A DNA stretch of 64,000 nt from Candidatus Heimdallarchaeum aukensis (GCA_021513695.1 CP084166.1:1856001-1920000), one strand, 5' to 3'. Counted from the stretch's first letter, positions 3,919-55,151 are shown. The notes: generated from the sequence alone by a model not told the origin. A program made the numbers and translations.

Positions 3919-4022
3919 TGGTGAGGGGAGGGCGATTCGAACGCCCGAACCACTAAGGAACGGATGGCCCATCTTCTTTAAGATCTTGAGTCCGTCGCCG
4001 TTGACCTCTTGGCTATCCCCCC
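3919..4022 (-). tRNA. tRNA-Leu (anticodon CAA) with an anticodon-loop intron of about 19 nt; CCA encoded
   Basis: The reverse complement folds as GGGGGGA acceptor, 3-bp D stem, anticodon stem ACGGA/TCCGT with loop CUCAAGA, an insert TCTTAAAGAAGATGGGCC, a long variable arm, and T arm GGGCG-TTCGAAT-CGCCC. 3' strand TCCCCTC-A-CCA. Confidence 0.75.
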
Positions 4023-7100: not shown

Positions 7101-8564
7101 TTAGAAATTTATAATATTAATAATTTCTTTTCCTTCTTCCAACATCTGTTTGCATTTGTCCACAAGTAAAAATACTTCCTCTTTAAATGAATTTGAGATT
7201 ATTCCTTTTTCAGCTAAATCATTTATAATTTCTGTGTCTTGAACCTCAATTTTATCTGCTTTCTTTATTAAAGAAACACCTAGATCAATATAACGGATAT
7301 ATCCTTCATTATATAGCTCTACTGGAGTTACAATTTTTATGTATTCACCCATTAATTTTTCTTTTCTGTAAACTTTAGTGTGAACAGTCCAACACCCTTC
7401 TTTGATATATGTAACCACATTGTCTCCACTATTAATTGGTTCGTCGATTGCGAAGTGAGACCCTCTTGAAGCTCGGAAACTCCGTTTTATAACCATTGTA
7501 TCATCGTCCCAGTTTAACTGTCCTAGTATTCTATCTAACGGAGATGCAATCAAGCTATATGATTGCTCTTTGATTAATGCATTTTCAGAGAAATCTTTCT
7601 CTAAAATAACCTCCTTAAGTATTCTAGATAATTTATCAGGATCAATATCCTGGGATATTCTTTCTGCGAAAGTAGTTGCTATCTTCAAATTTTCAGAATA
7701 TGACATAAACCAATGATATAAAGGAAATGTTGGAGCAATTATACTTCTTATCTCATCTAGCTTTTGCTTTGCGCCTTGAACAAATAATATGTGAGCCACA
7801 GTTTGACCTGGTTGTAATATTCCAGGTCCATAGGAGGAACCAGAAATTAACAGGTCTAACTCTTCAGATTTCTGGATTAACTTCTGTATCTCAGAGGTCA
7901 AATCCTTATCGCTAATTGATGCTGCACTAGTTCGCATAATTAGCCCATGGCCATGAGGTCTAAGTTTTTTTCCACGCTCAAACAGATTGTCTCTATCATC
8001 TTTTGATAATTTTCTCGAAACTCTAACAAAGCGTGCATCTCGCTCTAGAATAACATGCTGTCCTGGAAAATGAATAATATCTGAACATAAAGGCAGCTGA
8101 TCCCCTAGAACATTCAATTCATTTACTTGAACAACAACTTTTTGCCCTTTTTTATAATTTGCATTAAATAAAATTGCATTTATTTTTTCTCCGATGTCTA
8201 CAATTGAAAGATTTTTCTCGAAATTCACATGTACTATCTCTCCATTGTATATAGCATGTAGTTGTACTGGATGAAGTAAAACGATGGAATTAGGTATTTT
8301 ATCAAAAATGTTTGAAATAATTTCTTCAACATACTCTTCATCACCTTCAATTTTTATCCCGTAACCGCCTAGAATATCAGTTATATCTATGTCGTGGGCA
8401 TTTAGATTCTCACTTATTCCAAAAATTTTACTTTGTTCAGTACTCGGTTGTACCAATTTATATCCTAAATCATCTGATAATAATTTTATAATTGGAACAT
8501 CATAAATACTTCTAACACGAAAAGTTGGTACCATTAAATCACCACTTAAATTTTCTAACGACAC
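7101..8564 (-). CDS. RNase E/G-like RNA-binding protein (FAU-1 family), putative
   Basis: 487 aa. An internal GLIMRTSAASISDKDL resembles the RNase E/G catalytic-domain motif G(L/I)IxRTxA. The size matches archaeal FAU-1. Confidence 0.45.
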   Translation of the reverse strand: MSLENLSGDLMVPTFRVRSIYDVPIIKLLSDDLGYKLVQPSTEQSKIFGISENLNAHDIDITDILGGYGIKIEGDEEYVEEIISNIFDKIPNSIVLLHPVQLHAIYNGEIVHVNFEKNLSIVDIGEKINAILFNANYKKGQKVVVQVNELNVLGDQLPLCSDIIHFPGQHVILERDARFVRVSRKLSKDDRDNLFERGKKLRPHGHGLIMRTSAASISDKDLTSEIQKLIQKSEELDLLISGSSYGPGILQPGQTVAHILFVQGAKQKLDEIRSIIAPTFPLYHWFMSYSENLKIATTFAERISQDIDPDKLSRILKEVILEKDFSENALIKEQSYSLIASPLDRILGQLNWDDDTMVIKRSFRASRGSHFAIDEPINSGDNVVTYIKEGCWTVHTKVYRKEKLMGEYIKIVTPVELYNEGYIRYIDLGVSLIKKADKIEVQDTEIINDLAEKGIISNSFKEEVFLLVDKCKQMLEEGKEIINIINF

Positions 8565-8656: not shown

Positions 8657-8762
8657 AAGCCAAATAGTGGAGCCAGGACGGGGATTTGAACCCCGGAGGC
8701 ATAAGCCAGCGGTTATCTCTCTGATGTTTCGAGACCGCCTCCGTACCACTAGGATATCCTGG
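8657..8762 (-). tRNA. tRNA-Ser (anticodon CGA) with an anticodon-loop intron of about 13 nt
   Basis: Reverse complement: GCCAGGA acceptor, 3-bp D stem, anticodon stem GCGGT/ACCGC with loop CTCGAAA plus a CATCAGAGAGATA insert, a long variable arm, and T arm CGGGG-TTCAAAT-CCCCG. 3' strand TCCTGGC-T-CCA. Confidence 0.65.
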
Positions 8763-8903
8763 CAAAGGAAAAGTTCATTGTCTTGATTTTCATTGAAGTC
8801 AATATTTTAAGATTTCTACCTTGTTCACTTTTTAATTGATATAAGTACATTTGTGTTTCTTGATATTTTCGAACAAACAAAGATATGGTTAAAAAAAGAA
8901 AAG

Positions 8904-28949: not shown

Positions 28950-29951
28950 TCACCCTTGTTGACTTTTCCTTGATATATAAGTTATCTGTGGCTCTTTTTC
29001 TTGCTGCGGAGTTTTTCTCATGGGTTTTCTCAAAAATACTGTACGCTTTTTGCTTCCAGGAATTGAACCTTTAACTAAAACGTAGTTATTTTTTACCAGC
29101 CCATAATTTACAAATCCGCCATCAGGAATAATTTCTTTACCATCAGAACCTATTTGCATAATTCTTTTGTTGTATTCTGTACGAGTATGAAAACCCATTT
29201 GACCATGTCGGGGAACAGTCCACATTGTTCGTGCTGGGTGCCAGGGGCCTATTGAACCAACACCACGTTTTGTTCCTTTAGATTTGTGTTGTAGTATTTT
29301 GATTCCATGTCTTTTAACAGGTCCTTGGAAACCTTTTCCTTTTGTAACAGCAATTACATCGGCAAACTCTCCAGCTTTGAACACATCACGTATCATTACT
29401 TCCTTGCCTAATAGAGATAATCCATATTCGAATCCTTCAGAGGGACTATTACAACCGATTTTTATTTCGGCAATAGAGGGGGTTTTTGTACCTATCCCAG
29501 TCAAGTATGGTTGTGTATGTACAATGGCTCTGATCTCCACCATTTCGGGGAGCTTTTCTTCAAAGTTCTTTTTTGCTTTCTCAAAATCGTATTTTTTAGG
29601 GGTTTTAACACGCCGACGTAATTCTTCCTTATATTCAGAAGAGAAGAGATCAGCTGAAATACTAAGACCATATGGAGTCTTAGCGTAGCCGCGGAGACCA
29701 TAAACAACAATTGGTGGGGTCTCAATAACAGTGCAAGCTACTGTTACCTCGCGGTTCGCCAGATGACTTTGCCGGCGATCCTCTATATACGATAGTTGGC
29801 TCATTCCCGCTTTGATACCTAAGAAACCAAGCAACTTTGGCTGCCCGTTATATTCTGGCCAAGCTCTTGGTTTAGGAGTAAGCCTTGCGGCCCTATTCCT
29901 TCTGTATCCAAGCGATGAGCGACGAGGTGCATGGCTTGTTCTACTTCCCAT
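28950..29951 (-). CDS. rpl3: 50S ribosomal protein L3 (uL3)
   Basis: 333 aa starting MGSRTSHAPRRSSLGYRRNRAARL, the archaeal uL3 N-terminus. The 5' two-thirds (29288-29951) lies inside tandem-duplication copy 1. Confidence 0.9.
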   Translation of the reverse strand: MGSRTSHAPRRSSLGYRRNRAARLTPKPRAWPEYNGQPKLLGFLGIKAGMSQLSYIEDRRQSHLANREVTVACTVIETPPIVVYGLRGYAKTPYGLSISADLFSSEYKEELRRRVKTPKKYDFEKAKKNFEEKLPEMVEIRAIVHTQPYLTGIGTKTPSIAEIKIGCNSPSEGFEYGLSLLGKEVMIRDVFKAGEFADVIAVTKGKGFQGPVKRHGIKILQHKSKGTKRGVGSIGPWHPARTMWTVPRHGQMGFHTRTEYNKRIMQIGSDGKEIIPDGGFVNYGLVKNNYVLVKGSIPGSKKRTVFLRKPMRKTPQQEKEPQITYISRKSQQG

Positions 29952-31473
29952 GTTATCTCACATCTTTATTTTTATTTTTTATACCATAAAACCAGTTTGT
30001 TATTTTTAATGTACAAACTGGTATCTTATGCTTGTATTCCGAAAATCATTTTGCTCATATAAAGATGTTGTTTTGCGTTTTTTATAATACAGCTAGAAAA
30101 CTAGACTTTACTAAAATAACGTTTTAAAGGACTTCCACAATCTGGACAATGAACCAGTTTTTTTGTGAATTTAGCTCCACACACAGTACATTTCCAGAAA
30201 TACTTTTTCTTTTTTGTAATTTTAAAGAAAGAAGATTCTACTCTAATATTAAATATCTTACATAAATTTTGAATAGCATTATCATCTGAAATGATAGTGA
30301 ACTCTGGGTTTTCTATTGCAAGAGCTATAATAGTAAGATCATAACTCGATAATCGTCCATATTCACCAGCTTGCTTAGCTAGATTAACTGCTTTAGAAAA
30401 GGAAGAAGATGAAGGGATGAGAAAAAGAATGTTTTGTTTATTCTCAAGAAGACTTAAAACTAAATTGCTTTCAAATGATTTTAATTCCTCAGTGATATTA
30501 GCGGGAATTATAACAACACAATCGTCTGTTAAGAACCAATCTTTTGCCAAGATTTGGATTACAACCGTAGAGTCTAGTATTAATTTTTTTGGAAAATTTT
30601 TAGGTAAATGTCGCTCTTGAACCAATTAATTCACCGAATACGTTCCAACAACTTATTTCGAACACGTTTTATATAATTATCAGAGAATCTAATAAATCTA
30701 ATTTTTTCTCCAGATTTGTAAATCTTTACATGTTCATTGTATCCTAACGTGTAGTGAGCCTGTCCATCAACAACAACGATGCCTGTTCTGAATTTAGCCT
30801 CGTTAGTAACTGTTACTACCGTATCAGTTGAAAAAACAATAGGAGAAACATTTACAATAAAGGGACAGATTGGAACAAGGCAAAAAGCTTCTACATTAGG
30901 CATAATCAAAGGTCCTCCAGCTGACCTTGCATATGCGCTAGAACCTGCACTTGTAGAAACGATTACACCATCACCTTCAATAACATAAAATAATTTGTCA
31001 TTAATTTCAACCTTTAACCTCATAATGTTTCCATGATTCTTTGGAACAATAGTTATATCATTAACTGCTGAAATAGGGGGATAAGACTCTGATGAGACAG
31101 CTACTGTTGAAAACTCTTCTATTATAAATTCATCATTCAATATTTTATTGATTGCCCAATCTAACTTTTGTGGAATTATCTCAGTAAGAAAACCTACACG
31201 ACCACAATTAACTCCCAAAATAGGAGATTCTTTCCATTGAGTAAAAGTTTTCAGGATTGTCCCATCTCCTCCAAAAACAATGACTAGATCGGGTTGTTGT
31301 CCTTGTATAATGAAATCAGATTTCCGTAAATTTTTAGCTAAAACTTGACTTAGAGCAACCTTATAACCCTTTTCTAATAACATAGAAAGCGCTTCTGATG
31401 CAGAAATCAAAGCACTTTCTTTTTCTGATGAAACTAGAAGTATTAAAGAATCTTTTGTCAGCAATGCCCTTCT
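29288..31473. repeat. Tandem duplication, copy 1 (2186 bp)
   Basis: The sequence 29288-31473 recurs at 31474-33658 with near-perfect identity. One 1-bp indel was seen (tcgctcttg at ~30611 versus tcctcttg at ~32797). Confidence 0.9.
30101..30625 (-). CDS. nob1: Nob1-like PIN-domain endonuclease with a C-terminal zinc ribbon (rRNA maturation), copy 1
   Basis: 174 aa. PIN-like N-terminus (KLILDSTVVIQ...DD...) and terminal CTVCGAKFTKKLVHCPDCGS zinc ribbon. Size and architecture match archaeal Nob1. Confidence 0.55.
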   Translation of the reverse strand: MVQERHLPKNFPKKLILDSTVVIQILAKDWFLTDDCVVIIPANITEELKSFESNLVLSLLENKQNILFLIPSSSSFSKAVNLAKQAGEYGRLSSYDLTIIALAIENPEFTIISDDNAIQNLCKIFNIRVESSFFKITKKKKYFWKCTVCGAKFTKKLVHCPDCGSPLKRYFSKV

Positions 31474-31539
31474 GTTGTAGTATTTTGATTCCATGTCTTT
31501 TAACAGGTCCTTGGAAACCTTTTCCTTTTGTAACAGCAA
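30631..31539 (-). CDS. nadK: NAD kinase (NadK/PpnK), copy 1; the N-terminal 25 codons extend into duplicated rpl3-antisense sequence
   Basis: 302-aa ORF with the GGDGT motif (VIVFGGDGTILKT). By alignment with copy 2, the ancestral start is probably the TTG at 31464. Confidence 0.7.
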   Translation of the reverse strand: MLLQKEKVSKDLLKDMESKYYNRRALLTKDSLILLVSSEKESALISASEALSMLLEKGYKVALSQVLAKNLRKSDFIIQGQQPDLVIVFGGDGTILKTFTQWKESPILGVNCGRVGFLTEIIPQKLDWAINKILNDEFIIEEFSTVAVSSESYPPISAVNDITIVPKNHGNIMRLKVEINDKLFYVIEGDGVIVSTSAGSSAYARSAGGPLIMPNVEAFCLVPICPFIVNVSPIVFSTDTVVTVTNEAKFRTGIVVVDGQAHYTLGYNEHVKIYKSGEKIRFIRFSDNYIKRVRNKLLERIR

Positions 31540-32137
31540 TTACATCGGCAAACTCTCCAGCTTTGAACACATCACGTATCATTACTTCCTTGCCTAATAG
31601 AGATAATCCATATTCGAATCCTTCAGAGGGACTATTACAACCGATTTTTATTTCGGCAATAGAGGGGGTTTTTGTACCTATCCCAGTCAAGTATGGTTGT
31701 GTATGTACAATGGCTCTGATCTCCACCATTTCGGGGAGCTTTTCTTCAAAGTTCTTTTTTGCTTTCTCAAAATCGTATTTTTTAGGGGTTTTAACACGCC
31801 GACGTAATTCTTCCTTATATTCAGAAGAGAAGAGATCAGCTGAAATACTAAGACCATATGGAGTCTTAGCGTAGCCGCGGAGACCATAAACAACAATTGG
31901 TGGGGTCTCAATAACAGTGCAAGCTACTGTTACCTCGCGGTTCGCCAGATGACTTTGCCGGCGATCCTCTATATACGATAGTTGGCTCATTCCCGCTTTG
32001 ATACCTAAGAAACCAAGCAACTTTGGCTGCCCGTTATATTCTGGCCAAGCTCTTGGTTTAGGAGTAAGCCTTGCGGCCCTATTCCTTCTGTATCCAAGCG
32101 ATGAGCGACGAGGTGCATGGCTTGTTCTACTTCCCAT
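31474..32137 (-). pseudogene. Truncated duplicate of rpl3 (5' 664 bp only)
   Basis: Identical to rpl3 codons 1-221 (MGSRTSHAPRR...HGIKILQ). It then runs into unrelated sequence at the duplication junction 31473/31474. The track ORF 31361..32137 is this chimera. Confidence 0.8.
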
Positions 32138-32286
32138 GTTATCTCACATCTTTATTTTTATTTTTTATACCATAAAACCAGTTTGTTATTTTTAATGTAC
32201 AAACTGGTATCTTATGCTTGTATTCCGAAAATCATTTTGCTCATATAAAGATGTTGTTTTGCGTTTTTTATAATACAGCTAGAAAA

Positions 32287-32850
32287 CTAGACTTTACTAA
32301 AATAACGTTTTAAAGGACTTCCACAATCTGGACAATGAACCAGTTTTTTTGTGAATTTAGCTCCACACACAGTACATTTCCAGAAATACTTTTTCTTTTT
32401 TGTAATTTTAAAGAAAGAAGATTCTACTCTAATATTAAATATCTTACATAAATTTTGAATAGCATTATCATCTGAAATGATAGTGAACTCTGGGTTTTCT
32501 ATTGCAAGAGCTATAATAGTAAGATCATAACTCGATAATCGTCCATATTCACCAGCTTGCTTAGCTAGATTAACTGCTTTAGAAAAGGAAGAAGATGAAG
32601 GGATGAGAAAAAGAATGTTTTGTTTATTCTCAAGAAGACTTAAAACTAAATTGCTTTCAAATGATTTTAATTCCTCAGTGATATTAGCGGGAATTATAAC
32701 AACACAATCGTCTGTTAAGAACCAATCTTTTGCCAAGATTTGGATTACAACCGTAGAGTCTAGTATTAATTTTTTTGGAAAATTTTTAGGTAAATGTCCT
32801 CTTGAACCAATTAATTCACCGAATACGTTCCAACAACTTATTTCGAACAC
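32287..32850 (-). CDS. nob1: Nob1-like PIN/zinc-ribbon endonuclease, copy 2 (N-terminus altered by a 1-bp indel)
   Basis: 187-aa ORF identical to copy 1 from HLPKNFPKK onward. The upstream frame differs because of the single-base difference between the repeat copies. Confidence 0.5.
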   Translation of the reverse strand: MFEISCWNVFGELIGSRGHLPKNFPKKLILDSTVVIQILAKDWFLTDDCVVIIPANITEELKSFESNLVLSLLENKQNILFLIPSSSSFSKAVNLAKQAGEYGRLSSYDLTIIALAIENPEFTIISDDNAIQNLCKIFNIRVESSFFKITKKKKYFWKCTVCGAKFTKKLVHCPDCGSPLKRYFSKV

Positions 32851-33649
32851 GTTTTATATAATTATCAGAGAATCTAATAAATCTAATTTTTTCTCCAGAT
32901 TTGTAAATCTTTACATGTTCATTGTATCCTAACGTGTAGTGAGCCTGTCCATCAACAACAACGATGCCTGTTCTGAATTTAGCCTCGTTAGTAACTGTTA
33001 CTACCGTATCAGTTGAAAAAACAATAGGAGAAACATTTACAATAAAGGGACAGATTGGAACAAGGCAAAAAGCTTCTACATTAGGCATAATCAAAGGTCC
33101 TCCAGCTGACCTTGCATATGCGCTAGAACCTGCACTTGTAGAAACGATTACACCATCACCTTCAATAACATAAAATAATTTGTCATTAATTTCAACCTTT
33201 AACCTCATAATGTTTCCATGATTCTTTGGAACAATAGTTATATCATTAACTGCTGAAATAGGGGGATAAGACTCTGATGAGACAGCTACTGTTGAAAACT
33301 CTTCTATTATAAATTCATCATTCAATATTTTATTGATTGCCCAATCTAACTTTTGTGGAATTATCTCAGTAAGAAAACCTACACGACCACAATTAACTCC
33401 CAAAATAGGAGATTCTTTCCATTGAGTAAAAGTTTTCAGGATTGTCCCATCTCCTCCAAAAACAATGACTAGATCGGGTTGTTGTCCTTGTATAATGAAA
33501 TCAGATTTCCGTAAATTTTTAGCTAAAACTTGACTTAGAGCAACCTTATAACCCTTTTCTAATAACATAGAAAGCGCTTCTGATGCAGAAATCAAAGCAC
33601 TTTCTTTTTCTGATGAAACTAGAAGTATTAAAGAATCTTTTGTCAGCAA
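32816..33649 (-). CDS. nadK: NAD kinase (NadK/PpnK), copy 2; no in-frame ATG, candidate TTG start
   Basis: 277-aa ORF identical to copy 1 from LTKDSLILLV onward. An upstream in-frame stop at 33677-33679 leaves only the TTG at 33649 as a start. Confidence 0.65.
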   Translation of the reverse strand: MLTKDSLILLVSSEKESALISASEALSMLLEKGYKVALSQVLAKNLRKSDFIIQGQQPDLVIVFGGDGTILKTFTQWKESPILGVNCGRVGFLTEIIPQKLDWAINKILNDEFIIEEFSTVAVSSESYPPISAVNDITIVPKNHGNIMRLKVEINDKLFYVIEGDGVIVSTSAGSSAYARSAGGPLIMPNVEAFCLVPICPFIVNVSPIVFSTDTVVTVTNEAKFRTGIVVVDGQAHYTLGYNEHVKIYKSGEKIRFIRFSDNYIKRVRNKLLERIR

Positions 33650-33876
33650 TGCCCTTCTAAAGAAAATAAGAATTATCTAATAAAAATATTGGGTTGGAAA
33701 TAAATTATTATAATTAAGTATTAATAAAGCACCTAATCTCAGAAAATTCAAATAAAGTATCCTTTAATTTTTATTGAGTACTATAACAAACTCTTACTAT
33801 TTATTCAAGACACATAATAATTTTCTTCAACAAGATATAGTTTTAAAAAGTATTAGTACTAAAAAGAATTGATAGA

Positions 33877-34716
33877 ATGCGATATGCAGTAAAAGTTTTT
33901 TATTTGGGTGATTATTATTATGGTTACCAAAGACAACCTGATGTACCTACTGTAGAAGGTACAATTATCAATGCACTAAAGAAGGCAGGATACATTACTG
34001 ATGTAAAAACAAGTAATTTTGCAAGTGCAACACGGACTGACCGTTATGTAAGTGCATTAGGAAATTGTTTCGCTTTTAATACAAAAAAGGATCTAATAAT
34101 TACCCAATTAAATCATTTTTTACCTCACAATAACAGTATTATTTGTTGGGCAAAAAGCACCGTAGACGAAGATTTTTCTCCAAGGTTTGCAAAACTAAAA
34201 AAATATTGGTATTTTCTCTCAAGAGACTACATAAATGAAAAACAGTTATCAATTAATGATATAAAGAAAGTAAGTAAAAAATTCGAGGGAACCCACGATT
34301 TTAGATTATTTTCAAAGTTTAATGAAAAAGATACTATACGATCAATTGACAAAATTAATTTAATTGAAAATCAAGATAGTTTAATTTTAGAATTCATCGG
34401 TCAATCATTTCTTTGGCAGCAAATTAGAAGAATTGTATCCTACATTTTATCATTTCCTTTTCTACCAGAACAGTTTCAAGACACAGAGGAATTATTAGGG
34501 GAAAATAGCATAAATCACCTTCCCCTTAAACCAGCAAGTCCACACCACCTTTTATTTGTTGAGCATTATTATGAAAATCTTAATTGGAAAGTAAACCAAA
34601 CCACATTAAAGAAAATTTTATCATATTCAATGTTTCAATCTTTTGAACTCGATTCAAAACATGCTAGATTCAAAAAGCAATGGTCCTTTTTTAAAGATAG
34701 GATCGAAGAAAATTAA
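33877..34716 (+). CDS. truA: tRNA pseudouridine synthase A (TruA/Pus1-like)
   Basis: 279 aa with ASATRTDRYVSALGN (compare the RTDAGVHA catalytic-Asp motif) and GTHDFRLFSK (compare GTHDFxxF). Confidence 0.65.
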   Translation: MRYAVKVFYLGDYYYGYQRQPDVPTVEGTIINALKKAGYITDVKTSNFASATRTDRYVSALGNCFAFNTKKDLIITQLNHFLPHNNSIICWAKSTVDEDFSPRFAKLKKYWYFLSRDYINEKQLSINDIKKVSKKFEGTHDFRLFSKFNEKDTIRSIDKINLIENQDSLILEFIGQSFLWQQIRRIVSYILSFPFLPEQFQDTEELLGENSINHLPLKPASPHHLLFVEHYYENLNWKVNQTTLKKILSYSMFQSFELDSKHARFKKQWSFFKDRIEEN

Positions 34717-35065
34717 AAAAGCAGTTGGCTCATTTTAGCATTTTTTTCACTACTTGAGCGAATAGAGGTTATAGATGAAAAAAGGCAGTTCTCTTTTTAG
34801 GTATCTATCGCATTATAACACACATTACTTGAAAGGAAAAATCTTCGTCTACAGCTTCGGTTGAAAAACATTCAAAAACATTCAATCATCTTTTCTGACT
34901 CGTTAAATAACTCTATTCATCTGAATGACAAAAACAAGATTAGAAAAATGTATGAACTCAAGCTGATTATTTAACTCAAGCAGTCTTAAGAAAACGACAG
35001 AAAAGCAATATTTAAAAAATAAAAAAGAACAAAAATCAAAAACAGAAATAAGAATAAAAAAAAGT

Positions 35066-35205
35066 GCCCTGATGGTGTAGCGCGGCCAATCATAATGGAC
35101 TCTCACATGTTGAGGTCCGTGGGCCAAAACAGAAGAATCCATTGACCCGGGTTCAAAAAGATAAATGTTGAGGCATTTATTTTGTAACTCCCGGTCAGGG
35201 CACCA
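35066..35205 (+). tRNA. tRNA-Glu (anticodon CUC) with two ~31-nt insertions, one in the anticodon loop and one in the T-loop; CCA encoded
   Basis: Acceptor GCCCTGA/TCAGGGC. D arm GGTGTAGCGCGGCCAATCAT closely matches archaeal tRNA-Glu. Anticodon stem ATGGA (35095-99)/TCCAT (35138-42) encloses 38 nt beginning CUCUCA. T stem CCGGG (35147-51)/CCCGG (35190-94) encloses 38 nt, TTCAAA...T. Both inserts contain ATGTTGAGG. Confidence 0.6.
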
Positions 35206-35281
35206 ATTTCTTTTATATTATAAATTTCATATTATGAATCACATAGTTGTAAATACTGTAGTAAAAAATTAGTCTTTTTTA

Positions 35282-35944
35282 TTAACTGAAAAAATTGTCT
35301 AATCTACTCTGCTTTACATTAGTAGAAGATAATACTTTATCAATTGGAGGTTTTTTGAGAACATTATTGCTTTTTATATAAAAATAAATTTGTTTAAAGT
35401 GATTTCTATATGTTTCTCGCATAAATGCACTGTTATTTCTTAATATATAAGCTGGATGGAACGTTGAAAAAACAGTAAAACCCTCATTTGTTGTTTTAAA
35501 TAGCCCAACTTCTTTTGTAACTTTTGCTTTAGGAAAAAAATATTTTAATGCTACGGAGCCAAGCGTCACAATTAGTTTAGGTTGTAAGTATTCTAACTGA
35601 TGTTTTAGCCATGTACTTGAACAAATATTTATTTCAGTTTGAGATGGGATTCTATTCTTTCCATTTTCTGTAACTGGCCTACACTTTACCACATTTAGAA
35701 TACTAACTTCTTTTCTTTCTAATCCAATCTCACTTAGCATCGCATCAAGAAGTTTTCCTGATTTTCCAACAAAAGGGTATCCCTCCTTATCCTCATTATA
35801 TCCAGGAGCTTCACCGATAAAACACAGTTCATTATTAGAGCCATAAATTCCTGGAACGACGTTTTTTCTTGTTTTATAGAGAGAACATAATTTACAAATT
35901 TTTATCTTATTTGTAAGGTCTTCGAGATCATTTGAGATTTTCAT
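35282..35944 (-). CDS. udg: Uracil-DNA glycosylase, family 4
   Basis: GEAPGYNEDKEGYPFVGKSGKLL and HPAYILRN motifs, with N-terminal Cys residues (CKLCSL...C) of the 4Fe-4S UDG4 family. The start is set at the internal Met (the ORF extends to 36007). Confidence 0.8.
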   Translation of the reverse strand: MKISNDLEDLTNKIKICKLCSLYKTRKNVVPGIYGSNNELCFIGEAPGYNEDKEGYPFVGKSGKLLDAMLSEIGLERKEVSILNVVKCRPVTENGKNRIPSQTEINICSSTWLKHQLEYLQPKLIVTLGSVALKYFFPKAKVTKEVGLFKTTNEGFTVFSTFHPAYILRNNSAFMRETYRNHFKQIYFYIKSNNVLKKPPIDKVLSSTNVKQSRLDNFFS

Positions 35945-36007
35945 TAAGTTTAAGAGAAAAAAAGGATTTATTAATATATTTACAGTCATTAAAGAGAGGT
36001 CTCTCAA

Positions 36008-37330
36008 TTGAAAGGAATAATAATAGAAGCTGATTACGTTGTAACATGCAATTCAACAGACGAAGTAGTTAAGGATGGTGCTGTATATGTTGAAGGAAAT
36101 AAAATAAAAGCTGTTGGTAAAAGAGATACAATTGCTAACTATTACCCCTCATCAAGGATAATTTCAGGAAAGAATAAAATACTGCTTCCAGGATTAGTAA
36201 ATACACATTCCCATTCGGTACAAACGTTGTTAAGAGGTAAAGCTGAAGATCTAAGTTTAATTGATTGGCTCCAAAAAGTAATTTTACCAGGTGAAAGAAG
36301 TTTTAGTGCAGATAATGTTTATACATCATGTGCTTTGGGTTTTGCAGAGATGATACGAACAGGTACAACTACATGCAACGATATGCTGACGGCACATCAT
36401 TCCGAGGAAGGAATAAGGGCAGCGATTGATATTGGAATTAGGGCAAGAATAGGAAAAATGCTTATGGATGTTGACATCAACAATAAAAAAGAAAAACTTG
36501 AAAAAACATATGACATAATTGCAGAAGTCACAGACCACATTAAAAAATACCACAATAGTCAAAATGGTAGGATAAAATATTCCTTAAATTTAAGATTTCT
36601 TTTGAACAACAGTACTGAATTAATAGCAGAAGTTGTGAAATTACAACAAGAATATAACGACATTCTAATCCATACTCACGCTTCCGAAAATAAAAATGAG
36701 AGCAAACTTGTTACACAACAATTTGGAAAATCATACATCCGTGCTCTAAATGAGTTAAATGTTTTAGGAGAAAACACAATTCTAGCTCATGCAATATGGT
36801 TAGATGAAGAAGAGTACAAACTGATTAAAGAATCTGGAACAAAAATAAGTCATAACCCAAGTAGTAATAGCAAGTTAGCTTCTGGTATTGCAGATATTTC
36901 AAAATTTCAAGAACTTGGCATCATTGTTGGATTAGCTACAGACGGTGCTCCTTGTAACAACAACTTAGATATGTTTAGGGAGATACGTTTGGCATCATTT
37001 CTCCAGCGACTAAAATATCTAAATGAAAAAAAATTACCAGCTAAAAGTGTTTTGAAAATGGCAACGATTGAGGGAGCTAAAGCTCTTCATATGGATAAAG
37101 AAATTGGTTCAATTGAAATAGGTAAGAAAGCAGATTTAATTCTATTAGATATAAGCGATGTAAATGCAATTCCATTATATGACCCAATAACACATATTGT
37201 TTATTCTGCTAGTGGTAAAGATATTGTATTGACTATGATAGACGGAAGAATTGTTTATGAGAATGGTGTTTTTCACACAATAGATATTGAAAAGTTAAAA
37301 GATAAGACAGAACAGTACTTAAAAAGTTAA
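36008..37330 (+). CDS. Amidohydrolase-family deaminase (MtaD/SAH-MTA deaminase-like)
   Basis: 440 aa with LLPGLVNTHSHSVQTLLRG (the HxH metal site) and the conserved His/Asp ligands typical of MtaD/chlorohydrolase-type amidohydrolases. Apparent TTG start. Confidence 0.7.
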   Translation: MKGIIIEADYVVTCNSTDEVVKDGAVYVEGNKIKAVGKRDTIANYYPSSRIISGKNKILLPGLVNTHSHSVQTLLRGKAEDLSLIDWLQKVILPGERSFSADNVYTSCALGFAEMIRTGTTTCNDMLTAHHSEEGIRAAIDIGIRARIGKMLMDVDINNKKEKLEKTYDIIAEVTDHIKKYHNSQNGRIKYSLNLRFLLNNSTELIAEVVKLQQEYNDILIHTHASENKNESKLVTQQFGKSYIRALNELNVLGENTILAHAIWLDEEEYKLIKESGTKISHNPSSNSKLASGIADISKFQELGIIVGLATDGAPCNNNLDMFREIRLASFLQRLKYLNEKKLPAKSVLKMATIEGAKALHMDKEIGSIEIGKKADLILLDISDVNAIPLYDPITHIVYSASGKDIVLTMIDGRIVYENGVFHTIDIEKLKDKTEQYLKS

Positions 37331-37341
37331 ATAGAAAAACA

Positions 37342-38316
37342 CTATTCATGTTTTATTCTTGACAGTTTAGCTAAGAATGCCCCAATTTGTATATTACTTG
37401 ATGCCCCTTCAGATATTCTGAAATCAACTTCTGCCAGATATTGAGTAATCTCAAGTTTTGATACTTCTGGAATATCAAGTTTTGGTATCTCTTTATATAT
37501 TTGATAGGTTACATCTGTTCCTGATAAACCATATTCTAACATCAACTCATGTAACTGACTTCTTGCTTGTTGGAACTCTCCGTTTAATGCAAGCAATACC
37601 ATATTTTTTATCTGATCAGGATCAGCTTGACCAATAGTTTTTCTTACAGTCAACGCTTCAATAGAATGCCCCGATGCTGCTGTAGACTGGAGAATGTTTA
37701 TTGCTTTCCTTAAGTCTCCTTCTGCTATGTATAGAATAGTCTCGATTCCTTCTTTGTCATAAACAAGATTTTCTTTTTCAGATATGTAAATCAAATATTT
37801 TCTTATTTCCTCATCTGATAAGGGTTTAAATCTAAAGATAGCACAACGTGATTGTATTGGTTCAATTATTTTACTGGAGTAGTTGCAAATTAGAGCAAAT
37901 CTACTAGTCCTAACATATTTTTCCATTGTTCTTCGTAGTGCATGTTGTGCTGCACTTGTTAAATTATCAGCCTCATCTAAGCAAATAATTTTGAATGGTG
38001 CATTATATGGTGCAGTTCTTGCAAATTCTTTTATTTGTGTTCTAACAATATCAATTCCTCTATCATCTGATGCATTTAATTCTAGAATATTATGATGATA
38101 AGTATCGGGACCAAATAAATCATGTGCCAAAGCTAAAACTGCTGTTGTTTTTCCTGTTCCAGGTGGTCCAGCAAATAAGAGGTGTGGCAGATTACCTTTT
38201 TCTACAAATCCTTTTAATCTTACAACTATATCTTGATGTCCCCTAAGATCGTTTAATGATCTTGGTCGATATTTTTCTGTCCACATAATATTGTAATTTA
38301 CTTTCATTATCTCCAT
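37342..38316 (-). CDS. rfcS: Replication factor C small subunit
   Basis: 324 aa with the RFC box and Walker A LLFAGPPGTGKTT, DEAD-like Walker B LDEADNLT, and the SRC motif SRCAIFRFKPL. No intein. Confidence 0.9.
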   Translation of the reverse strand: MEIMKVNYNIMWTEKYRPRSLNDLRGHQDIVVRLKGFVEKGNLPHLLFAGPPGTGKTTAVLALAHDLFGPDTYHHNILELNASDDRGIDIVRTQIKEFARTAPYNAPFKIICLDEADNLTSAAQHALRRTMEKYVRTSRFALICNYSSKIIEPIQSRCAIFRFKPLSDEEIRKYLIYISEKENLVYDKEGIETILYIAEGDLRKAINILQSTAASGHSIEALTVRKTIGQADPDQIKNMVLLALNGEFQQARSQLHELMLEYGLSGTDVTYQIYKEIPKLDIPEVSKLEITQYLAEVDFRISEGASSNIQIGAFLAKLSRIKHE

Positions 38317-52617: not shown

Positions 52618-52655
52618 ACTCTTCTAAAAAAAGCAGTAAAATTATAGAAAAGAGT

Positions 52656-52733
52656 GGCGAGGCAGCCGGGATTTGAACCCGGGTCCATGGAGTGACAGTC
52701 CACGATCATCGACCGAGCTAAACTACTGCCCCG
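52656..52733 (-). tRNA. tRNA-Asp (anticodon GUC); CCA encoded
   Basis: Reverse complement: GGGGCAG acceptor, D arm GTTTAGCTCGGTCGATGATC (homologous to the canonical tRNA-Asp/Glu D arm), anticodon stem GTGGA/TCCAT with loop CTGTCAC, T arm CCGGG-TTCAAAT-CCCGG. Confidence 0.7.
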
Positions 52734-55035: not shown

Positions 55036-55151
55036 GGCTCGGTAGCTCAGCAGGCTAGAGCGCAAGACTCATAATCTTGTGTTAAAGGGCTAGATATGGC
55101 TTGCGAGGAGAAATCTTGAGGTCGGGGGATCGAAACCCCCCCGAGCCACCA
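55036..55151 (+). tRNA. tRNA-Met/Ile2 (anticodon CAU) with a 39-nt anticodon-loop intron; T-loop AUCGAAA; CCA encoded
   Basis: Acceptor GGCTCGG/CCGAGCC, D arm GCTC-AGCAGGCT-AGAGC, anticodon stem CAAGA/TCTTG with loop CTCATAA. The insert is ATCTTGTGTTAAAGGGCTAGATATGGCTTGCGAGGAGAA, and TCTTG is repeated at both junctions. T arm GGGGG-ATCGAAA-CCCCC. Confidence 0.75.

Follow-up and report, generated by a model that had tools for sequence, protein, structure and literature searches.

Can a tRNA gene that is interrupted twice, once in the anticodon loop and once in the T-loop, still supply a working tRNA, and where might its two interruptions have come from? The question is raised by a 140-bp gene for tRNA-Glu(CUC) with an encoded CCA end, on the plus strand at 35066-35205 of the stretch of Heimdallarchaeum DNA analysed here (64 kb; hereafter the window). 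Read directly from the sequence, the acceptor stem pairs GCCCTGA (35066-35072) with TCAGGGC (35195-35201), followed by A73 and CCA (35202-35205), and the D arm is of the tRNA-Glu type. The anticodon stem ATGGA (35095-35099)/TCCAT (35138-35142) encloses 38 nt, and so does the T stem CCGGG (35147-35151)/CCCGG (35190-35194). An earlier note on this DNA had described a 140-bp tRNA-Glu(CUC) gene with canonical acceptor and D arms and with inserts of about 31 nt in the anticodon loop and T-loop, only seven of the 38 nt within ATGGA/TCCAT belonging to the mature loop. The sequence read bears out the length and both arms, and the spliced form, which ARAGORN accepts as a normal cloverleaf, bears out the inserts and the mature loop.

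We divide the gene into three exons and two 31-nt introns, all on the plus strand. Exon 1 (35066-35105; tRNA positions 1-37), delimited by the sequence read, BLAST of the spliced tRNA and orthologue alignment, contains the 5' strand of the acceptor stem, the D arm, the 5' strand of the anticodon stem (ATGGA) and the loop nucleotides CTCTCA, with the anticodon CTC at 35102-35104. Intron 1 lies in the anticodon loop and is drawn here at the canonical position 37/38 (35106-35136), with 38/39 (35107-35137) as the alternative. Exon 2 (35137-35157; positions 38-59), placed by the same three lines of evidence, provides the 3' strand of the anticodon stem (TCCAT), a 4-nt variable loop (TGAC), the 5' strand of the T stem (CCGGG) and TTCAAA of the T-loop. 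Intron 2 interrupts the T-loop at position 59/60 (35158-35188), as judged from a bulge-helix-bulge motif of the hBHBh' form and from the T-loops of orthologues. Exon 3 (35189-35205; positions 60-76), supported by the sequence read, ARAGORN on the spliced sequence and BLAST, comprises T60, the 3' strands of the T stem (CCCGG) and acceptor stem (TCAGGGC), A73 and CCA (35203-35205).

Left unspliced, the gene receives no ARAGORN call, with or without the intron option, and no Rfam tRNA match at gathering or E-value thresholds. Deleting both inserts (35106-35136 and 35158-35188) yields an ARAGORN call of a 78-nt tRNA-Glu(CTC) with a normal cloverleaf, and deleting the T-loop insert alone yields a tRNA-Glu(CTC) with a 31-nt intron in the anticodon loop. 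BLAST of the spliced sequence aligns three blocks (35066-35105, 35136-35157 and 35189-35205) and finds no further tRNA-Glu copy within the 64-kb window. The mature read expected from the gene is GCCCUGAUGG...CUCUCA(A or C)UCCAU...GGUUCAAAUCCCGG...CCA. Two nucleotides past the CCA begins a T-rich run, TTTCTTTT (35207-35214, plus strand), possibly an archaeal oligo-T terminator judging by its sequence; a promoter and terminator scan around the gene, of a bacterial type ill-suited to archaea, returned nothing. Because standard finders miss the gene, tRNA-Glu(CUC) may be absent from Heimdallarchaeum annotations and from counts of tRNA completeness.

The T-loop intron is well supported as a near-canonical BHB intron at 59/60. 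Our scan used, for each strand, a 4-nt central-helix strand and a 3-nt bulge cut after its second nucleotide, a geometry that gives a perfect hBHBh' when checked by eye on the tRNA-Leu(CAA) gene of the window. In intron 2 the hBHBh' motif sits exactly at 59/60, with the 5-bp T stem as its outer helix. The central helix joins 35152-35155 (UUCA) to 35183-35186 (UGUA) through three of four possible pairs and one U-U mismatch; it is flanked by the bulges AA/A (35156-35158) and AC/U (35187-35189), where the slash marks the cut, and by a 10-bp inner helix (35159-35168 with 35173-35182) capped by the loop UGAG. Shuffling the intron gave three of four central pairs plus a stacked inner helix of 4 bp or more in just 0.9% of cases. 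Removal of intron 2 leaves the 7-nt T-loop TTCAAAT on a 5-bp T stem, and because this loop is identical in all orthologues, the junction is fixed at 59/60; the earlier note had located the intron near this point, within the 38 nt enclosed by CCGGG/CCCGG. Junctions at 58/59 and 56/57 were rejected for their poor motifs or non-canonical loops. The BHB conformations of both introns lie about 6 kcal/mol above the minimum-free-energy folds.

The BHB prediction that the earlier note had called for gives a clear motif for the T-loop insert and a less clear one for the anticodon-loop insert, which fits only relaxed motifs and no strict BHB, and whose boundary is ambiguous between 37/38 and 38/39. At 37/38 the central helix CUCU:AGAA has three of four pairs and the 3' bulge GA/A is intact; a 5-nt bulge holds the 5' site, no inner helix is stacked on the motif, and 27% of shuffles score equally well, so that as a BHB the motif is no better than chance. 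At 38/39 the central helix UCUC:GAAG also has three of four pairs, and a clean 3-nt 5' bulge (AC/A) separates it from a stacked 4-bp inner helix (UGUU:AACA), a combination of bulge and helix matched by only 0.3% of shuffles; the 3' bulge is disrupted, since the cut on the 3' side is then at U39, normally the partner of A31. Either boundary keeps the anticodon CUC and leaves nucleotide 38 as A (37/38) or C (38/39). Other readings of the anticodon, such as CUG, gave poor motifs or non-canonical loops and were rejected.

We give about an even chance to the variant of our main explanation in which intron 1 lies at the non-canonical 38/39 (35107-35137) and the mature loop reads CUCUCAC. The orthologues described below favour it, since CUCUCAC is their anticodon loop: C38 occurs in four of four orthologous lineages, and no substitution need be supposed. 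The difference in shuffle frequency (0.3% against 27%) points the same way, as does the exact coincidence of the start of intron 1, under these bounds, with a tRNA-like stretch discussed below, while the two models differ little in energy (-8.5 or -6.5 kcal/mol for 38/39 against -8.1 kcal/mol for 37/38). Weighing against it, 37/38 is by far the commonest intron position; ARAGORN puts the introns of the tRNA-Leu(CAA), tRNA-Ser(CGA) and tRNA-Met genes of the window, and that of the orthologue in locus L026, at or beside 37/38; and L026, inspected by eye, carries the same C32-A mismatch within a good 37/38 motif.

To place the gene among its relatives, we reached orthologous loci in other Heimdallarchaeaceae through homologues of the neighbouring truA, the gene for tRNA pseudouridine 38-40 synthase. 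The order at these loci is tRNA-Leu(GAG), an HTH gene, tRNA-Glu(CUC), truA and the RFC small subunit. The truA-linked tRNA-Glu(CUC) is intron-less in three lineages (L023-25, L028-29 and L030-31) and has a single 33-nt anticodon-loop intron in L026, whereas a pattern scan of species-representative genomes found a 140-nt gene 100% identical to ours, with both introns, in Ca. Heimdallarchaeum endolithica PR6 (CP084167.1). The intron content of this tRNA is therefore variable between related lineages (zero, one or two), which is the comparison of intron positions that the earlier note had proposed. The exons of the genes from the four other lineages align with the window gene without gaps, at a mean column identity of 95%, and the intron-less orthologues align exactly across both junctions. 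In the four distinct sequences, each of the 20 stem pairs is a standard pair. Five of them have changed on both sides, three specifically in the window gene (5:68, 27:43 and 28:42 in tRNA numbering), and none of 500 shuffles matched the values for stem pairing and double changes; by eye, pair 26:44 has also switched, from U:A to A:U. Judged from these compensatory exon changes and intact stems, the gene appears to evolve as a working tRNA.

Comparison with PR6 extends this picture to the introns. The DNA flanking the gene is 89.7-92.8% identical between the window and PR6, and 12 substitutions and 5 indels separate the two versions of the 349-nt upstream spacer; within the 140-nt gene, 62 nt of which are intron, there is no difference. 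A divergence of 5-7% predicts 3-4.5 intron changes, and the probability of none is about 0.01-0.05, which suggests that the intron sequence is constrained too. The same 140 nt also occur in a JGI contig (L001, probably the window's own) and in a separate Logan assembly (L002; SRR15988954), and this recurrence, together with PR6, speaks against an assembly artefact. A metagenome scan with a 20-mer from the D arm returned chance coding matches and one unrelated tRNA-Glu(UUC), and it also missed the window's own contig.

One locus departs from the series. L027, which holds the closest truA relative, has no recognisable tRNA-Glu. Where relatives have tRNA-Glu(CUC), its AT-rich spacer between the HTH gene and truA contains a 115-nt GC-rich island (881-995), for which we found no ARAGORN or Rfam match and no significant fold z-score; the island may be a heavily disrupted tRNA or another RNA.

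We consider the locus very probably a functional tRNA-Glu(CUC) gene, expressed through a precursor of about 140 nt with two 31-nt BHB introns. Its anatomy, fold, exon conservation and pattern of intron presence and absence are observed, and from them we infer transcription, cleavage and ligation. In the model that we propose, intron 2 would present both splice sites in 3-nt bulges beside a 4-bp helix formed by T-loop nucleotides 54-57 and the 3' end of the intron, and intron 1 would present a relaxed motif, to be cut at 37/38 or 38/39. EndA, the splicing endonuclease of archaea, would cleave the precursor at its four sites, and an RtcB-type ligase would join the three exons, giving a tRNA of about 75-78 nt with a genomically encoded CCA; the protein-spliced introns would probably be released as small circles.

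The contrary reading, a tRNA-Glu gene disabled by two insertions that stay in the transcript, we regard as highly improbable. It would account for the failure of standard tRNA finders, and the gene does stand at a rearranged site, with an IS5-like ORF just downstream in PR6. Yet a pseudogene would not be expected to keep every stem pair intact with compensatory changes relative to its orthologues, to retain all conserved loop sequences once spliced, or to show no difference over 140 nt between genomes that are 5-10% apart around it; moreover, the T-loop insert forms its BHB in exactly the register that restores TTCAAAT, and the window offers no second tRNA-Glu. Group I introns and a retained, expanded T-loop were rejected on grounds of size, motif and conservation.

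The intron of Haloferax tRNA-Trp encodes a C/D box sRNA, and such a product was also considered here, by searching for box C (RUGAUGA), box D (CUGA), a guide region or a match to a curated model. By eye, AUGUUGA departs from box C at a core position, and neither intron contains CUGA. With the introns only 31 nt long and a single Rfam match, to a fungal snoRNA (E = 0.75; 16.5 bits against a threshold of 39), we rejected this candidate.

The surroundings of the gene are unsettled. In the window (tRNA-Glu/truA region, 33877-38316) the tRNA lies downstream of truA, and it is followed, before RFC is reached, by genes for a uracil-DNA glycosylase and an amidohydrolase; in relatives truA abuts the RFC small-subunit gene and has the tRNA upstream, encoded on the strand of truA in L026 and on the other strand in L023-25 and L028-31. 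The linkage of tRNA-Glu(CUC) to truA holds in every Heimdallarchaeaceae locus examined (L023-L026 and L028-L031) except L027. On the side of the uracil-DNA glycosylase, synteny is not conserved, relatives lacking a tRNA at that place. The window and PR6 cease to be homologous about 30 nt past the 3' end of the tRNA (about 35236-35245); the uracil-DNA glycosylase gene comes next in the window, and in PR6 an ORF (about 7510-8000 of locus L007) with a sub-threshold match to an IS5-family transposase (NCBIfam, E = 1.2e-6) and no Pfam match. Just upstream of truA, a 2186-bp direct tandem duplication (29284-31469 and 31470-33654; 99.9% identical, with one mismatch and one gap) contains a PIN-domain ORF, an NAD kinase gene and part of the gene for ribosomal protein L3; as the unit is single-copy in PR6, the duplication is either strain-specific or an assembly artefact. 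The gene thus lies in a region of frequent rearrangement, which fits ideas tying the disruption of tRNA genes to mobile elements (PMC3293823).

Introns are common among the other tRNA genes of the window as well: four of the eight carry one or more, and all eight encode CCA. The gene for tRNA-Leu(CAA) (3919-4022, minus strand) has a 19-nt intron in a perfect hBHBh' motif; that for tRNA-Ser(CGA) (8668-8763, minus strand), with a 13-nt intron, is called 'tRNA-???' by default ARAGORN and missed by Rfam at its gathering threshold; and that for tRNA-Met (55036-55151, plus strand) has a 39-nt intron at 55074-55112. The T-loop of this tRNA-Met, ATCGAAA by eye, is an initiator-like feature of an otherwise elongator-like tRNA. 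The anticodon and T arms of the window tRNA-Asp(GUC) (52655-52732, minus strand) match their counterparts in the spliced tRNA-Glu with 92% identity over 37 nt; both tRNAs have A37, and tRNA-Asp has C38.

The second part of our question, the origin of the introns, begins with a 9-mer, ATGTTGAGG, that occurs in both (35107-35115 in intron 1 and 35165-35173 in intron 2, plus strand). These are its only two exact copies in the window, one per insert, as the earlier note had seen. Among shuffled pairs of 31-mers, 0.12% share a word of at least 9 nt (p about 0.0012), and sharing by chance is therefore unlikely. The note had offered two accounts of the word, as part of the splicing helices or as a sign of common origin. 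In either intron the 9-mer lies outside the central 4-bp splicing helix, and it contributes the 5' strand of the inner helix, its distance to the splice site differing between the two. For intron 1, in the 38/39 model, this strand is UGUU; for intron 2, the word makes up the upper part of the inner hairpin, AUGU being paired and UGAG forming the loop. Common origin is the better supported of the two accounts, the 9-mer being embedded in the tRNA-like stretch, which matches nucleotides 38-61 of tRNA-Met.

This stretch, ATGTTGAGGTCCGTGGGCCAAAAC (35107-35130, plus strand), agrees without gaps at 18 of 24 positions with 55113-55136 of the tRNA-Met gene, that is, with the 3' strand of the anticodon stem, the variable loop, the 5' strand of the T stem and the T-loop. 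None of 5000 shuffles reached this identity, and 7 of about 126,000 genomic 24-mers outside tRNA genes did. By this resemblance intron 1 looks like a copied piece of another tRNA gene, and a tRNA whose nucleotides 38-61 read AUGUUGAGGUCCGUGG... would be its source. When intron 1, with its 38/39 bounds, is circularly rotated, it matches the tRNA-Met segment 55106-55136 (plus strand; the last 7 nt of the Met intron and nucleotides 38-61 of the 3' exon) at 24 of 31 positions, a value reached by none of 300 shuffles; the purine-rich 7-mer within this match may come from a shared need to pair with a CUC-containing loop. Intron 2, unrotated, matches the same segment at 18 of 31 positions.

Between the two introns themselves, rotation of intron 1 gives 17/31 identity (p about 0.009) and an exact 11-mer (p about 1.5e-4). 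Linear local alignment finds nothing past the 9-mer, and linear and circular alignments at +2/-3 add nothing more. Since the similarity does not cover most of their length, being confined to the 9-mer in linear form and to 17/31 after rotation, we rejected the view that the pair are transposed copies; no further copies of either intron were found in the window or the fetched loci. The tRNA-Leu(CAA) intron agrees with the first 19 nt of intron 1 at 12 of 19 positions (p about 0.015). In the tRNA-Met gene, the opening 24 nt of the intron and of the 3' exon agree at 15 positions (15/24; p = 2.4e-4), so that by sequence the start of this intron looks like a decayed copy of that exon, an internal duplication. 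As a general rule, the idea that an intron start copies the start of its own 3' exon was rejected, as it holds in one of 13 cases, the window tRNA-Met alone.

We read these sequence likenesses as moderate evidence for a shared origin of introns 1 and 2 in a tRNA-gene fragment, which may have spread by tandem duplication, by copying between tRNA genes or through a circular intermediate. That the shared 9-mer is a coincidence, or a by-product of similar pairing needs in introns of independent origin, we find somewhat unlikely. In linear alignment the introns are indeed unrelated outside it, and many 9-mers of each recur elsewhere in the window. Inspection by eye also shows possible pairing of UGAGG with U33-A37 and of UUGAG with U54-A58, loop segments that are themselves alike, so that selection for pairing could bring about similar words. 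Set against this are the rarity of common substrings of at least 9 nt in shuffled introns, the position of the 9-mer inside a stretch significantly similar to a tRNA 3' exon, the 11-mer and 17/31 identity that appear on rotation, and the location of the word outside the central splicing helix of both introns.

A more specific proposal takes a shared fragment origin further: both introns would descend from a tRNA-gene piece spanning a canonical 3' splice junction (an intron 3' end and Met-like nucleotides 38-61), with intron 1 circularly permuted and intron 2 linear. We put this forward as a speculative scheme that is, in such detail, improbable. It would fit the decayed 3'-exon copy in the tRNA-Met intron and the lineage-varying introns of tRNA-Glu. 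If it were true, BHB introns in this eukaryote-related archaeon would be born from, or travel as, fragments of tRNA genes, and would have entered two loops of one tRNA recently, possibly via a circular intron intermediate or tandem duplication.

Beyond any one scheme, the locus provides a clean series, zero, one and two introns in a single tRNA and its orthologues, from the Asgard family closest to eukaryotes, and so makes the timing and source of protein-spliced introns testable; for intron origin, the resemblance of intron 1 to the 3' exon of a tRNA offers a concrete lead. Mobile-element integrases favour two sublocations within tRNA genes, the anticodon loop and the T-loop, reportedly the topic of Williams 2002, which the Heimdallarchaeum genome paper cites. 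Both loops are interrupted here, and the published idea that introns shield tRNA genes from integration (PMC3293823) could be examined at this gene.

The same architecture recurs elsewhere among archaea. The pattern scan that identified the PR6 gene also brought up tRNA-Glu genes with two introns from Woesearchaeota, Baldrarchaeota and MAGs labelled Methanosarcinales. Four of these genes have a perfect central helix of four pairs at 59/60 (UUCA:UGAA), and in L011 the helix is UUCG:CGAA, both strands differing with pairing kept, which amounts to covariation. In the two tRNA-Glu genes of Baldrarchaeota MAG_95 (L004, 1012-1134; L009, 6676-6796), the anticodon intron fits best at 34/35, where it splits the anticodon and has a fully paired 4-bp central helix (GGCC:GGUC), and the T-loop intron fits best at 58/59, with a covarying central helix (GUUC:GAAC or GGAU). 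About 120 nt upstream of the two-intron tRNA-Glu on the minus strand of L005 (Woesearchaeota) stands a second tRNA-Glu-like D arm, TGGTGTAGTCCGGCCAATCAT, with unrelated sequence after it; this could be a further disrupted tRNA-Glu gene or a 5' piece of a tRNA.

In the literature on archaeal tRNA introns and on Heimdallarchaeum we found no description of this gene or of its occurrence in Heimdallarchaeum; tRNA introns are not a topic of the Heimdallarchaeum genome paper, whose tRNAs come from a generic pipeline and which describes many elements that integrate at tRNA genes. The kind of gene is known. Position 59/60 is a listed archaeal tRNA intron position, and several introns per tRNA are established (PMC4090602); ARMAN-2 pre-tRNA-Cys has a 59/60 intron whose motif is cleaved in vitro by an (alpha-beta)2 endonuclease (PMC5829648). 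Asgard archaea, including Heimdallarchaeota AB_125, have an (alpha-beta)2 EndA with an L1 loop that tolerates relaxed motifs (PMC5829648), and in three complete Asgard genomes of other classes 92-95% of tRNA genes bear introns, over half of them several, non-canonical positions included (PMC11291895). With 59/60 introns, multi-intron tRNAs and intron-rich Asgard sets thus all published, our gene belongs to a known kind. It shares with the multi-intron tRNAs of Thermoproteales, Caldiarchaeum, ARMAN-2, Atabeyarchaeia and Freyarchaeia the use of short introns at BHB or relaxed BHB motifs served by a protein endonuclease, and the combination of an intron in the canonical region with a second elsewhere in the same tRNA; it differs from them in that its sister lineages have intron-less orthologues.

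The pre-tRNA-Glu(UUC) of Methanopyrus kandleri, a tRNA-Glu as well but another isoacceptor, has two introns, at 20b/21 and 37/38 (PMC5829648). Like our gene it combines one canonical intron with one non-canonical intron in a relaxed motif, and its splicing has been shown in vitro and by RNA-seq (PMC5829648); its second intron, however, lies in the D-loop rather than the T-loop, and the M. kandleri enzyme lacks the L1 loop. The transposed introns of Thermoproteales (Fujishima et al. 2010, as summarised in PMC4090602) have sequence in common between introns at different positions or in different genes, suggesting copying within the genome. In that summary they are described as having 'very similar sequences', whereas our two introns share only a word of 9-11 nt, and the longer similarity here (18/24) is to a tRNA exon, unlike the likeness between introns that the summary gives for Thermoproteales. 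The model of intron gain through mobile elements proposed for Caldiarchaeum tRNA-Thr (PMC3293823) differs from our case in that we found no integrase, tRNA direct repeat or element border beside the gene in the window; it resembles our case in that intron number differs among close relatives, in the occurrence of tRNA-derived fragments, and in the position of the gene at a hot spot of rearrangement and insertion.
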